The notes under the pieces: generated by a model
What the model saw: the letters and a program-made list of their open reading frames with translations, nothing else
The model's database searches: none
What the model was told of the DNA's origin: nothing
Translations under genes and position numbers: made by a program
Shown here: positions 6,453 to 11,028 of the stretch, one piece after another
Layout: each line of letters starts with the position of its first letter
Numbering within the stretch: the first letter of the stretch is position 1
Virus record (IMG/VR): IMGVR_UViG_3300029305_001452
Span: 75,973-139,972 of that record
Strand: one strand, 5' to 3'
DNA from: a virus
Taxonomy: Duplodnaviria > Caudoviricetes
DNA length: 64,000 nucleotides

Positions 6453-7070
6453 TGAAGTAAAAGGAGCTTTCTATGTGGAATATTCAAAAGATTGTGAGCA
6501 AAGGTGATTATAATTACGCTGTTGTACCAGAACATCCAAATCGTACAAAAAATAACTATGTTTTGGAACATAGAGTCGTAATGGAAAATTACCTTGGTAG
6601 ACTTTTGAATAATGATGAGGTTGTGCATCATATAAACGGCAATAAAAAAGATAACAGAATTGAAAATTTAGAGGTATTTTCTAACGAAGAACATGCAAAA
6701 CTACATGGTGCTAGAGTTGGTCATAAAATGGTAATGCTAAAATGTCCTTGGTGTCAGAAAGTATTTTCAATTGAAAAAAGACAATCTTTTTTAGATAAGC
6801 ATAATAAATATCAATGCAACTGCTGTTCTAATGAATGTCGTGGTAAATTATATAGCAGCATACAACATCATGGATTAACCGTAGATTTGCAGGAAGCTAT
6901 ATCGGAAAATCTCTTAGCGGAATATATTGAATATATTGACGAAGACAATTCCGAGGAAACCCTCTCACAATGGGGATCCGTAGAGACTATACGCTTCCCA
7001 TCTGAAATGATGATGATATAGTCCAGACTACAACATATAAATTATGGCTATGGAAACATAGAGTAGTAAG
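6453..7070 (+). mobile_element. Group I intron in the tRNA-Arg anticodon
   Basis: Follows an exon U and ends in G; core elements GTAGAGACTATA (R) and GATATAGTCC (S) form P7. Confidence 0.88.
6473..7021 (+). CDS. Intron-encoded HNH homing endonuclease
   Basis: EHRVVME...VHHINGNKKDNRIENL motif plus Zn finger; AAGGAG RBS. Confidence 0.9.
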   Translation: MWNIQKIVSKGDYNYAVVPEHPNRTKNNYVLEHRVVMENYLGRLLNNDEVVHHINGNKKDNRIENLEVFSNEEHAKLHGARVGHKMVMLKCPWCQKVFSIEKRQSFLDKHNKYQCNCCSNECRGKLYSSIQHHGLTVDLQEAISENLLAEYIEYIDEDNSEETLSQWGSVETIRFPSEMMMI

Positions 7071-7470: not shown

Positions 7471-7647
7471 GTAGAGAGAGTCTACTTAAAAGGTCAGCAA
7501 CAAGATTGTCTGACGCAACGTTGAAACAAATAGTCCGGGCCAACTTCGGTTATTTGTGGAGTTCATTGAGGGTTTGATGCCATCCACAAGTTGGCTAGAC
7601 AAAAGTCGAAAGAAAAGCATCAGTCTACGAAACGGAGGATATTGCCT

Positions 7648-7695
7648 ATGATTGAATGCGTAAAATCCAGCAAGGAGGAAACTCCTCCAGCATAG
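7648..7695 (+). CDS. Putative 15-aa micropeptide MIECVKSSKEETPPA
   Basis: GGAGG RBS; paralog at 10864. Confidence 0.4.
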   Translation: MIECVKSSKEETPPA

Positions 7696-7737
7696 TAGCG
7701 GGTTTCGCCGTTCCCACCAAAAACGGCGAGTTAATAT

Positions 7738-7826
7738 GGCGGGTTAATTCGGACGGCTCCGAACCTTGTCTTGAAAACAAGTGGTACCAGGGATGGTATG
7801 GGGATCGACACCTCAGCCCGTCGCCA
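7738..7826 (+). tRNA. 8/4 allo-tRNA-like tRNA-Ser(UGA)
   Basis: 8-bp acceptor; 6-bp D stem with 4-nt loop; CTTGT-CTTGAAA-ACAAG; long V arm; 4-bp T stem; GCCA. Confidence 0.8.
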
Positions 7827-7831
7827 TATAT

Positions 7832-7921
7832 GGAGAGTTACCCAAGTGGTCAAGGGGGCAGTTTGCTAAACTGCTAGGGGTTTAAAAGCCCGCGAGAGTT
7901 CGACCCTCTCACTCTCCGCCA
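7832..7921 (+). tRNA. tRNA-Ser(GCU)
   Basis: GCAGT-TTGCTAA-ACTGC; long V arm; GCCA. Confidence 0.92.
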
Positions 7922-8553: not shown

Positions 8554-9357
8554 TTGATGGAATATTATACAAGCTCATCTGAACAAATTCGACAAGATAC
8601 ATGTGATGAGGTAGAATATGTAGAAATTAAAAATCCATTTGGTTTTATTTATATTACAACTAATTTGATAAATGGTAAAAGATATATTGGACAAAGAAAG
8701 TTTTCTGATGGGTGGACAACATATCTTGGAAGTGGAAAGAGATTTAAAACGGCTCTGAAAAAATATGGTAGAAAAAATTTTGTTAGATTAATAGTTGATA
8801 TAGGCTATTCTCGTGAAGAACTAAATGATAAAGAAATTAGTATAATAAAATTTTTAAATGCCGTTGATAGCAGAAATTTTTATAATATATCAGAAGGCGG
8901 AGAGATAAAAGGCAAAAGTGGAAAAGATGCATACTGGTATAATAAAAAAATTCCACAAGAAAGCATAGAAAAGGCAAATTTAAAAAGATATAAACCTGTT
9001 TACCAGTTCGACTTAAATGGTAATTTTATTAAGCGTTATGAGTCCGTAACACATGCTGCAAAAGAAAATAATCTTAGCAAACAAGGAATAAGTAAGTCGT
9101 GTAATGATGATAGTAAAACATGCGGTGGTTATTTTTGGTCATACAGTGACAATATTGGCTTAAGAAAATATGATCCTACCAAAAATCATAAACCAGATGA
9201 AGTATATCAATATGATTATGATGGTAAGAAATTAATTAATATTTATATATCTGCAAAAGAGGCAAGCGAAAAAACTGGAATAGCTACATACAATATATAT
9301 GCTTGTCTTTCTGGTAAGAGAAAACATGCTGGAAATTTTACTTGGAAAAAGGAGTAA
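8554..9357 (+). CDS. Free-standing GIY-YIG homing endonuclease with two NUMOD1-like repeats
   Basis: GFIYITTNLINGKRYIG, YLGSG; two VYQ[FY]DxxG repeats. Confidence 0.9.
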   Translation: MMEYYTSSSEQIRQDTCDEVEYVEIKNPFGFIYITTNLINGKRYIGQRKFSDGWTTYLGSGKRFKTALKKYGRKNFVRLIVDIGYSREELNDKEISIIKFLNAVDSRNFYNISEGGEIKGKSGKDAYWYNKKIPQESIEKANLKRYKPVYQFDLNGNFIKRYESVTHAAKENNLSKQGISKSCNDDSKTCGGYFWSYSDNIGLRKYDPTKNHKPDEVYQYDYDGKKLINIYISAKEASEKTGIATYNIYACLSGKRKHAGNFTWKKE

Positions 9358-9364
9358 TTAAATT

Positions 9365-10021
9365 ATGAGTACAAAAGAAACATGCACTATCCACAAGGCA
9401 CTTTCCGAACTGAAGACTATTGATGACCGTATCATCAAGGCCATCCGTAGTAACACCTATGTACTAGCTGTTAAGCATTCAGCAGAGAAGATTAACGGTG
9501 TGAAGGTTGACACCTGCAAGGAGAATATGAAGAGTGGCTATCAGAAGGTTACCGACCTAATAGCTCGTCGTGTTGCAATGAAGAGAGCAGTTGTTCTTTC
9601 CAATGCAACCACTAAGGTTAAGGTTGGCAATAACGAATACACCGTGGCCGAGGCAATTGAGATGAAGAATCACGGTATGGAGTTCAAGAAGACTCTACTA
9701 CAGTATCTATATACTGCATATGGTTCTGCTCAGAACGAGTTCAATAAGAACAACGATGAGGCACTTGAAAAGAAGGCAGAGCAGTATGTTCTCGCAGTGA
9801 TTGCTGCACAGCCCAAGGACTCTAAGATGTCTGTTGATAGCGAAGCAATGAAGGCACTTCGTAAGACATACATCGAGAACAACACTTATGATTTGCTTGA
9901 TCCTCTGAATGTAGCTAAGATCATGGAAGAACTTGATTCTGAAATCAACGAGTTTGAAGCTGAAATTGATGCAGCACTGTCTGTTTCCAACGCACTAACT
10001 GTGATTGAGTTCGAGTATTAA
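9365..10021 (+). CDS. Coiled-coil protein (DIP1984/DUF6847-like by pattern)
   Basis: AAGGAG RBS; IHKALSELK...RI and EIDAALSVSNA.T.I; family assignment from memory. Confidence 0.7.
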   Translation: MSTKETCTIHKALSELKTIDDRIIKAIRSNTYVLAVKHSAEKINGVKVDTCKENMKSGYQKVTDLIARRVAMKRAVVLSNATTKVKVGNNEYTVAEAIEMKNHGMEFKKTLLQYLYTAYGSAQNEFNKNNDEALEKKAEQYVLAVIAAQPKDSKMSVDSEAMKALRKTYIENNTYDLLDPLNVAKIMEELDSEINEFEAEIDAALSVSNALTVIEFEY

Positions 10022-10028
10022 TTAATCT

Positions 10029-10446
10029 GCTTGCTGCTTTTCGAAAACCTTAAACGACTACTTATCTCTTCTTTTTTAATCATTTAGAGTGATATTAATA
10101 AGTTAAATAAAATGATTACTAAACAACTTTATGTACTTGAAATACATAAAACTCTTTGCCTAAGGGTTATAAATAATAAAAGATATGATAAATTAAGATG
10201 ATCATATAATTATTAATTAATTGTAACTGTAAAGCTTAAAGTTAAAAATTCAAGACTTAAGGTTCAAGGATCAAAGTTTTATTTTGGTCAAAGGTCGTTT
10301 ATTAAAGTAGTAAAGAGGGCTAAGAAGTTATAAATAATTGAATATTATGCGGAGCCCACAAAGTTTTACAAAATCCACGGTTAAAGGTTTGGGTGAGTGG
10401 TCAAGGCCCAAAGGTGAGCCTCGTGGCTGGAAAGTAGCAAGCACCA
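10029..10446 (+). ncRNA. ~418-nt structured RNA with tRNA-like ACCA end and heptamer array
   Basis: 14-bp terminal stem GCTTGCTGCTTTTC/GGAAAGTAGCAAGC plus ACCA; several internal helices. Confidence 0.65.
10230..10278 (+). repeat. Seven tandem degenerate 7-mers
   Basis: TAAAGCT TAAAGTT AAAAATT CAAGACT TAAGGTT CAAGGAT CAAAGTT. Confidence 0.75.
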
Positions 10447-10577: not shown

Positions 10578-10653
10578 GTCCAAAGATGGTGTAAGGGTAG
10601 CACACAGAAGGGTAGGCCGGCGAGGTACTGTTCGAATCAGTTGAGGGCGACCA
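10578..10653 (+). pseudogene. Degenerate tRNA-like element
   Basis: D arm GTGT..GCAC, T arm ACTG-TTCGAAT-CAGT and ACCA are present; no anticodon stem; poor acceptor. Confidence 0.55.
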
Positions 10654-10863
10654 AAAAGAAAACTCTTAAAAGTACAGAGATATGAAAAAACGATGTAACA
10701 AATGAGAACTTGGTCGGTAGAGATTAATGATTAAAGATAGACCGTTGGTGAGTCATGCGCAGACAAATCCAACCATCGTTCCCATAGATGAAATTTCTAT
10801 GGCTCAATGAATTACAAATAACATACGAAAGTGTGTTAAATAATCCAAAGGAGGACTTTGCCT

Positions 10864-10911
10864 ATGATTGCATTCGCTAAATCCACCTCGGAGGATACTC
10901 CAATCGGCTGA
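10864..10911 (+). CDS. Putative 15-aa micropeptide MIAFAKSTSEDTPIG
   Basis: AAAGGAGG RBS; paralog at 7648. Confidence 0.4.
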   Translation: MIAFAKSTSEDTPIG

Positions 10912-10950
10912 TTGGGTTCCTGGGGCAAGAACTGAAACTGCCCCTCATAT

Positions 10951-11028
10951 TGCGGAGTAGACAAGAGGTCTAAGTCGCCAGCCTCATAAGCTGGAAATCG
11001 TTGGTTCGAATCCAACCTCACGCAACCA
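10951..11028 (+). tRNA. tRNA-Met(CAU), initiator-like, bulged acceptor
   Basis: CCAGC-CTCATAA-GCTGG; ACCA. Confidence 0.8.

Follow-up and report, generated by a model that had tools for sequence, protein, structure and literature searches.

Why would a phage keep, inside a transfer RNA (tRNA) array, two copies of a very small open reading frame (ORF), each preceded by a strong ribosome-binding site and each running into a GC-rich structured element? The question is raised by a 64,000-nt stretch, hereafter the window, of a Caudoviricetes genome (IMG/VR record IMGVR_UViG_3300029305_001452, positions 75,973–139,972), in which an initial annotation, made from the letters of the DNA, had described two paralogous modules and offered two readings of them: a family of phage micropeptides, or a new non-coding RNA motif that sequesters ribosomes or an RNA-binding protein. 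Re-read directly from the window, the sequences, coordinates and features of both blocks proved correct. Copy 1 (block 7634–7729, plus strand like all parts of both copies) carries the Shine–Dalgarno (SD) motif GGAGGA at 7634–7639 in a leader at 7629–7647, 8 nt 5' of the ATG at 7648, and a micro-ORF of 15 codons (MIECVKSSKEETPPA; 7648–7695) that ends in TAG at 7693–7695, with a second in-frame TAG at 7696–7698. Copy 2 (block 10850–10944) has an extended SD, AAAGGAGGA, in its leader at 10845–10863 (GGAGGA at 10850–10855), an ATG at 10864 and again 15 codons (MIAFAKSTSEDTPIG; 10864–10911), closed by TGA at 10909–10911. A 52-nt degenerate consensus matched the window at these two places only and matched none of 100 window shuffles, and the two are the sole copies in the 139,972-nt record. 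We propose that each module, here called a cassette (A for copy 1, B for copy 2), is a mini-cistron whose translation would bring a ribosome to terminate against an RNA pseudoknot, with a stabilizing or insulating role, and we put the probability of this whole mechanism at about 40%.

The RNA structure carries much of the argument. Both copies contain, as had been described, the motif GGAG-GA(A/T)A-CTCC and a GGGTT. The 'GC-rich hairpin' reported after GGGTT holds as pairing but not as a simple hairpin, as in both copies it is the second stem of an H-type pseudoknot whose first stem takes its 5' strand from GGGTT, and both stems covary. Pseudoknot A (7700–7729) pairs GGG at 7700–7702 with CCC at 7713–7715 in stem 1 (S1) and UCGCCGUU at 7705–7712 with AACGGCGA at 7722–7729 in an 8-bp stem 2 (S2), and its loop 3 is A-rich. 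Among related cassettes of this type, S1 changes from GGG/CCC to GAG/CUC (locus L031) and S2 changes from C-G to G-C or U-A. Pseudoknot B (10916–10944) consists of S1 (GUUC 10916–10919 with GAAC 10929–10932) and S2 (GGGGCA 10922–10927 with UGCCCC 10939–10944), with CU as loop 1, a one-base junction and UGAAAC as loop 3. Across 16 cassettes of this second type, double-sided changes affect all four S1 pairs and three of the six S2 pairs, and pairing is seen in 95% (S1) and 93% (S2) of cells. The covariation score lies above that of every shuffle, and pairing drops to 30–42% when the register is slid.

Folding extends into the frame itself. In type A, hairpin P2 (7673–7686; AGGAG, a GAAA loop and CUCCU) lies inside the ORF, is built on an internal SD-like GGAGGA and covaries, two of its pairs changing on both sides (A-U / U-A / C-G and A-U / G-C). 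The type-B P2 (10890–10901; GGAG-GAUA-CUCC) is paired in most of the 16 members and shows no covariation among them, its columns being almost invariant. Type B has in addition a hairpin P3 (10900–10915; CCAAUC/GAUUGG), which holds the stop codon in its loop, abuts pseudoknot B with its 3' arm and has double-sided changes in four of six pairs in the same 16 members. P2 and P3 of type B cannot both be full length because they share two C residues. A possible further helix, P1, joins the SD GGA to the UCC of codon 7 and is paired in 81–96% of cells, with changes only from G-C to G-U; an alternative helix proposed by RNAalifold joins the internal AGGA to the UCCU of the knot and shows no covariation, both strands being invariant.

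The two copies belong to a wider family, built from pattern scans of IMG/VR and metagenome contigs. The loose patterns used, TCTACGAAAN{1,2}GGAGGA and AATAATCCAAAGGAGGA, gave mainly chance matches, and the matches were sorted with an nhmmer profile. The resulting family has 22 distinct complete members, six of type A (like copy 1, with the leader ..AUCUACGAAAC and knot A) and 16 of type B (like copy 2, with the leader AAAUAAUCCAAA and knot B). Since types A and B occur together on one contig at least six times (the window, L004, L011/L030, L017, L020 with L031, and L015 with L033), they are long-standing paralogues. Conservation starts about a dozen bases 5' of the SD (at ..ATCTACGAAAC in type A and exactly at AAATAATCCAAAGGAGGA in type B) and stops with the knot; the flanks are unrelated, those upstream of type B falling into three unrelated groups. 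The cassette is thus a discrete unit of about 110 nt. Upstream of it lies a drum RNA (window, L004, L031), a tRNA 8–25 nt away without drum (L005, L011) or other sequence, and downstream usually a tRNA, namely Met and Leu(UAA) after most type-B and Ser after type-A members. Neither the micro-ORF pattern nor the knot-B pattern (forward or control) matched any of 401 sampled Clostridia genomes, and no host prophage was identified there.

Is the micro-ORF translated? All 22 members retain GGAGGA, ATG ATT G and an open frame, including those retrieved with a leader probe that did not depend on the ATG; the leader GGAGGA is invariant in all six type-A members, and the SD–ATG spacing is 8 nt across the family except for one member with 9 and one with 7. 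Column shuffles of codons 3–15 leave the frame free of stops in only 71 of 5000 cases (1.4%). The stop stands directly after codon 15 in 17 of the 22, with TAG, TGA and TAA all in use. Five frames are longer: four of them, of 19–21 codons, terminate within the knot, and one, of 16 codons, terminates a single codon further on and short of the knot. In locus L150 the micro-ORF has 20 codons and a TAA stop inside the knot. Insertions and deletions occur in the SD–ATG spacer and after codon 15, and none falls within the 45 nt of the frame. The initial annotation had proposed to compare frame conservation with covariation, and had named frameshifts or a lost ATG among homologues, together with absent covariation, as the outcome that would count against both of its readings; the comparison finds both signals, since every member keeps the ATG and the frame and the stems covary. 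On these features of the alignment, the micro-ORF is probably translated.

The knots also occur as independent modules in phages. A knot-B search pattern of 18 specified bases, including a fixed AAACTGCCC, was found in more than 118 IMG/VR contigs; 111 distinct sites, not selected for a micro-ORF, were analysed. The inner S1 pair, which the pattern leaves unconstrained, is formed at 111 of 111 sites with six pair types and the outer pair at 80, compared with 31 and 22 in misregistered controls. An ORF of at least 50 codons ends within 60 nt 5' of the knot at 86 of the 111 sites, and the knot is phased after the stop codon: the stop-to-S1 spacer peaks at 5, 6 and 7 nt (15, 19 and 10 sites) and is never below 5. 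Because TTTT follows within 12 nt 3' of the knot in only 6 of 54 sites, knot B is not an intrinsic terminator. Knot A, too, stands 3' of the stop codons of ordinary genes, at 14 more loci on phage contigs that represent 12 distinct sites, and its S1 covaries there (GGG/CCC, GAG/CUC, GAUGGG/CCCAUC, CGAG/CUCG, GGAG/CUCC). In GenBank, unannotated copies of knot B are present in phages of Gordonia, Corynebacterium, Microbacterium, Cellulosimicrobium, Moorella, Streptococcus, Lactobacillus, Nostoc and Synechococcus and in a deep-sea thermophile phage (D6E); weaker matches there are at about chance level, and no Proteobacteria phage is among the matches, though such phages dominate the collection. 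The Gordonia phage copy sits just 5' of tRNA-Asn, within a tRNA array. The cassette recreates, in a gene-free tRNA array, the 'stop codon then pseudoknot' layout of ordinary genes in unrelated phages.

Three minor arrangements were seen in the same survey. Knot B is tandem in L244 (7255–7325; two copies, 42 nt apart) and flanks a tRNA on both sides in L237 (1483–1660). In L237 a short SD–ATG frame (MRSPKPQSWA) also runs into the knot and ends at the knot's UGA, like the 21-codon member L015.

The setting of copy 1 brings in a second RNA. Type-A cassettes in the window, L004 and L031 directly follow a drum RNA (Rfam RF02958), which in the window spans 7516–7625 on the plus strand (69 bits against a gathering score of 43), immediately 5' of cassette A, and ends 8 nt before copy 1. 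Drum is context and no part of cassette A: the intervals 7625–7740 and 10895–10955, scanned alone, gave no drum match, and the cassette also occurs without drum. Drum was described with a Rho-independent terminator after it (Weinberg et al., 2017, PMC5737381). In our 70 bacterial matches, mostly from gut Clostridia, the core runs straight into a terminator-like hairpin and T-run; of the 65 distinct loci whose flank is long enough, 53 have a T-run 20–80 nt 3' of drum. None of them has an SD–ATG micro-ORF, and the idea that the micro-ORF is part of drum was rejected on this ground. After the phage drum the cassette occupies the terminator's place, where a terminator would cut off the downstream tRNAs. 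In about 32 of the 65 bacterial loci (a crude motif count) drum is followed by a gene for PBECR4, a Barnase-EndoU-ColicinE5/D-RelE-like nuclease (PF18813, E 1.8e-34), whereas the phage genome has one drum RNA and no PBECR4. Drum may be an RNA partner or antitoxin of PBECR4, with the phage copy as a mimic; we found no paper on drum function in the literature. A divergent drum upstream of cassette B, suspected by eye, is not supported: that region gave no Rfam match at E up to 1, and the type-B upstream flanks fall into the unrelated groups described above.

How might these parts work together? The cassette would be transcribed within the tRNA-array precursor and would present, from 5' to 3', a very strong SD with its AUG, a 15-codon frame with a folded last third (P2, and in type B also P3) and, 2–4 nt later, the knot. 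A ribosome would translate the frame and terminate with the knot at its entry channel; with a spacer of 2–4 nt, S1 may then be partly opened. Ribosome and knot together would form a roadblock that resists exonucleases and ribosomes. Such a roadblock could stabilize the processed spacer RNA (for copy 1, a drum RNA that lacks the terminator normally found after it) and, while letting transcription continue, insulate the adjacent pre-tRNA.

Several results weigh against this mechanism. The stop-to-knot spacer of 2–4 nt in the cassettes is shorter than the 5–7 nt usual at other knot-B sites. No upstream ORF exists at 25 of the 111 knot-B sites, which lie beside tRNAs, near other RNA or in tandem, so that a terminating ribosome is no general requirement for the knots, and across 54 sites knot B is not generally accompanied by an SD-like 'clamp' 7–24 nt ahead of the stop. 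For the frame itself, the ratio of nonsynonymous to synonymous changes (pN/pS) along a minimum spanning tree is 0.57–0.65 in frame 0 and 1.21 and 0.90 in frames 1 and 2, but the frame-0 value is not significantly low, 16% of shuffles being equal or lower; the coding case therefore rests on the openness of the frame, the position of the stop and the pattern of insertions and deletions. The invariant third positions in ATG ATT G point to constraint at the RNA level even at the 5' end of the frame. Finally, a tRNA is already stable and excised, and the need for insulation is not evident.

These reservations bear directly on what else the cassette might be. The first reading offered for it, in which the 15-residue peptide itself is functional (an inhibitor, a signal or a ribosome-arresting nascent chain) and the RNA structures are the usual 3' boundary signal of a phage gene, accords with the open frame of fixed length, the strong ribosome-binding site and the lower pN/pS of frame 0 (0.57), and the same knots follow the stops of ordinary genes, so the cassette could be a very small gene. 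Residues do recur, namely M-I-V at positions 1–3, S7, E10, D/E11 and P13, with P-P at 13–14 in 12 of the 22 members. However, positions 4, 5, 8, 9, 12, 14 and 15 take chemically unrelated residues, and codon positions 2 and 3 are about equally variable (column entropy 0.60, 0.92 and 0.99 at codon positions 1, 2 and 3), besides the lack of significance in the pN/pS difference. Much of the residue conservation can be explained at the RNA level. E10-D11 comes from the invariant internal GGAGGA, which in the type-A member of L004 (GGAGG there) has moved by 2 nt and is read in another frame; the amino acid at codon 9 varies, yet 21 of the 22 members have G as the third base of this codon, which completes that GGAGGA; and residue 14 of type B (P, I or K) tracks the covarying 5' arm of P3. 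What stands of the micropeptide claim is the frame, open in all 22 members; a family of functional micropeptides is not well supported, and we consider it unlikely. The pattern suggests selection on translation and barely on the peptide, with ribosome loading and termination at a set distance from the knot being maintained. The opposite extreme, a purely non-coding structured RNA in which the frame is incidental and the SD-like and AUG motifs serve the fold or a binding partner that is not an initiating ribosome, draws on the invariance of nucleotides including third positions (ATGATTG, GGAGGA, UCC), on P1 with its pairing in 81–96% of cells, on the strong covariation of P3 and both knot stems, on the same non-significant pN/pS, and on the company the cassette keeps among other non-coding RNAs (drum, tRNAs and a tRNA-like element). 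It would have to treat as accidents a frame that stays open in only 1.4% of column shuffles, a stop at codon 16 in 17 of 22 members with all three stop codons in otherwise variable loops, a 45-nt frame free of insertions and deletions that occur immediately on either side, and an SD–AUG spacing fixed at 8 nt apart from the two exceptions. This we judge rather unlikely. In the non-coding claim of the initial annotation the RNA structure is borne out by covariation; the pseudoknots, the drum RNA and the wide, independent occurrence of the knots had been missed. RNA structure plus ribosome engagement fits better than a functional micropeptide family.

Two more specific roles were weighed on the same evidence. 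Classical leader peptides can be of similar length (pheL has 15 codons), and the cassette lies directly 5' of tRNA genes; its frame could be the leader peptide of an attenuator or switch that senses the phage tRNA supply, with alternative folds controlling processing of, or read-through into, the downstream tRNAs. The two C residues shared by P2 and P3, and the RNAalifold helix between the internal AGGA and the knot UCCU, would provide such alternatives, but the covariation missing from that helix, with both its strands invariant, speaks against a switch, the knots have no U-tract and are not terminators, and nowhere does the frame repeat codons for a single amino acid in a row. Of the 15 codons, 8 in A and 5 in B are cognate to one of the 14 phage tRNAs, against 47% genome-wide, which is no enrichment, and we hold a sensing role to be very unlikely. 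Still further from probable, in our estimate, is a counter-defence decoy, in which an abundant ribosome-at-stop complex would act with the orphan drum RNA to titrate a ribosome-dependent RNase of the RelE/BECR type. The idea takes its appeal from the PBECR4 genes that follow drum in roughly half of the bacterial loci by the crude count given above, from a phage that has drum and lacks PBECR4, and from the position of cassette A directly after drum in a region that is wholly a tRNA array; this support is purely associative, and no drum precedes cassette B or several of the type-A members.

The mechanism favoured here, a ribosome terminating against a knot, has partial counterparts among known systems. 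In Firmicutes, RNA is shielded from RNase J1 by a ribosome lying upstream, either bound at a strong SD (cryIIIA STAB-SD) or halted within the leader ORF of ermC. The cassette resembles these in its very strong SD (AAAGGAGG), which there acts alone or with a short leader ORF, and in a peptide sequence that is largely irrelevant; those elements stand at the 5' ends of protein-coding mRNAs, whereas the cassette lies between tRNAs, is joined to a pseudoknot and is not known to depend on a stalling signal or a drug. The bar minigenes of phage lambda and other minigenes of two to a few codons are likewise tiny frames with a good ribosome-binding site, which act by engaging ribosomes or tRNA rather than through what they encode, but 15 codons is far longer than frames prone to peptidyl-tRNA drop-off, and the cassette has a conserved length and a knot after it.

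Compact pseudoknots also serve recoding, as in the −1 frameshift knots of luteoviruses such as beet western yellows virus and the UAG read-through knot of murine leukaemia virus. The likeness to these is structural (H-type, a loop 1 of 1–2 nt starting with C, a single junction nucleotide, an A-rich loop 3) and positional, with 5–8 nt separating the knot from the codon that occupies the A site of the ribosome. The difference is that no slippery heptamer precedes the stop and no conserved extended frame follows it. The frame of cassette A closes with GCA TAG TAG and that of cassette B with GGC TGA, the last sense codons vary at 54 other knot-B sites, and tandem stops occur at 11 of those 54. With no slippery heptamer, common tandem stops and no extended frame, a −1 frameshift or stop read-through signal is unlikely. 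Nor is either knot an intrinsic (Rho-independent) terminator, since no U-tract follows: knot A is succeeded by GUUAAUAUG and knot B by UCAUAUUG.

Knot B also resembles the coremin exonuclease-resistant RNA of plant viruses (beet necrotic yellow vein virus and cucumoviruses), a mechanical roadblock that halts a 5'–3' exonuclease as well as ribosomes and favours frameshifting (Dilweg et al., 2019, PMC6546385; 2023, PMC10321173). The two have GUC..GACGUUAAACU in common, as knot B reads (C)GUC-CUGGGCAU-GACG-UUAAAC-UGCCC and coremin CGUC-CGAA-GACG-UUAAACUAC. Coremin needs a first hairpin of 3–5 bp with a pyrimidine–purine closing pair (PMC6546385), and S1 of knot B has 4 bp closed by C-G; in both, pairing between loop and spacer makes a small pseudoknot. 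Where coremin has its 10-nt spacer (UUAAACUAC..), knot B has NNAAACU, most commonly UUAAACU, although the search pattern had fixed AAACTGCCC; the remainder differs because it pairs as the 3' strand of S2. The two also differ elsewhere. The loop of knot B (CUGGGCAU or CUGGGGCAA, 8–9 nt) forms a second stem of 5–6 Watson–Crick pairs and contains no YGAD tetraloop; the second hairpin of coremin (hp2), needed for resistance to the exonuclease Xrn1, is not evident, the sequence 3' of knot B being variable with no conserved hairpin; the host is bacterial, where the analogous enzyme would be RNase J; and knot A has no sequence likeness to coremin.

Searches of catalogued RNAs gave little else. No Rfam 15 family matches the cassette or either knot, and on the cassettes alone the search returned, besides a weak and partial alignment with wcaG RNA (RF01761), only matches at chance level (CRISPR-DR47 and the frameshift sites of HIV or FIV). 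In the wcaG alignment, knot A (GGGUUUC-stem-UUCCC..CAAAAA-stem) aligns with model positions 55–84, the 3' hairpin, but the score, over that hairpin alone, is 15.6 bits against a cut-off of 42 for the whole model, and the remaining wcaG structure is absent. By inspection, helix order or loop content does not fit knot B to an HDV-like (theta), pistol or twister ribozyme or to a preQ1-I or guanidine-III riboswitch. Transfer-messenger RNA was considered for the cassette as a whole; neither ARAGORN (window and genome) nor Rfam finds one, and the frame has a canonical SD and AUG. A literature search with the knot sequence returned only primers and unrelated text, and we found no paper describing the cassette or the knots.

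Short leader frames and H-type knots are each well known separately; what is new is the conserved union of a short frame with a knot inside tRNA arrays, together with classes of knot anchored to stop codons. If the mechanism is right, phage tRNA arrays also hold mini-cistrons that are translated to position a ribosome rather than to make a protein, and two knot classes absent from Rfam would mark gene ends in phages of Actinobacteria, Firmicutes and cyanobacteria. Phage mRNA architecture would thereby gain a new element, and the exonuclease-resistant RNAs of viruses a possible counterpart in bacteria. The uncharacterized drum RNA would also be given a context, in which the phage copy has swapped its terminator for the cassette and does without the nuclease gene that accompanies bacterial drum. 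A more general proposal would make post-stop pseudoknots an undescribed punctuation of phage transcripts, the cassette being their portable, self-sufficient form: the knot and a terminating ribosome would block host exonucleases (RNase J, for example) and in this way determine where RNA segments end and how long they persist, the hosts apparently lying outside the Proteobacteria, and in tRNA arrays a dummy 15-codon gene would be supplied solely to park a ribosome against the knot. In a bolder version the parked ribosome and the orphan drum RNA would form the RelE/BECR nuclease decoy discussed above. We regard the general proposal as improbable.

The genomic surroundings complete the description. 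The source phage is an uncultured gut virus, and its NAD-dependent ligase shows 38% identity to the ligase of Clostridium phage c-st and to fragments of human faecal phages. All 14 tRNA genes of the genome sit in one array, the one that bears the cassettes (ARAGORN). The initial annotation had placed a tRNA gene after each copy, which is correct for copy 2, where tRNA-Met(CAU) at 10951–11023 (plus strand, ARAGORN) begins 6 nt 3' of pseudoknot B. Copy 1 is followed first by a tRNA-Sec-like element at 7738–7822 (plus strand; 40.9 bits with the Rfam tRNA-Sec model, below its cut-off of 47, and no ARAGORN call) and next by tRNA-Ser at 7832. Read by eye, the element shows a UGA anticodon and a long acceptor stem. 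In blastn against known phages only this neighbour of copy 1 gave matches, at about 82% identity to a stretch in Prevotella Lak megaphages and at about 74% in the Pseudomonas phages Milchi and Astolliot, in which the annotation makes it part of a hypothetical protein; the cassette itself had no match.

Other features were noted in passing. Homing endonuclease genes break up the tRNA array, with an HNH_3 ORF at 6473–7021 and a GIY-YIG/SegE-like ORF with NUMOD domains at 8554–9357. A RAGATH-27-like match at 10030–10118 (45.5 bits, below the cut-off of 76.1) starts a long gene-free stretch after a 218-aa ORF (9365–10021). Just 5' of cassette B in L004, L011, L020 and L148 lies a conserved sequence of about 110 nt (..GCGGAGCCCACAAAGUUUUACAAAAUCCAC..GGUGAGUGGUC..GUAGCAAG), probably a further phage RNA that is not yet catalogued; words resembling it can be seen by eye in the window at about 10350–10400. 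Also 5' of cassette B, at 10578–10643, is a tRNA-like 3' half (..GGUACUGUUCGAAUCAGUUGAGGGCGACCA) that is kept in metagenome locus L373 and is called by neither ARAGORN nor Rfam. Between knot A and tRNA-Ser(UGA) in L004, L011 and L018 (e.g. L011:3575–3700, minus strand) there is an unannotated element of about 100–130 nt starting GAAGCAGUAUCCAAGUG.., which has the look of a class II tRNA and is likewise called by neither program. In L150, a tRNA with the anticodon CUA (an amber suppressor, labelled 'Pyl' by ARAGORN) lies about 80 nt 5' of the cassette.

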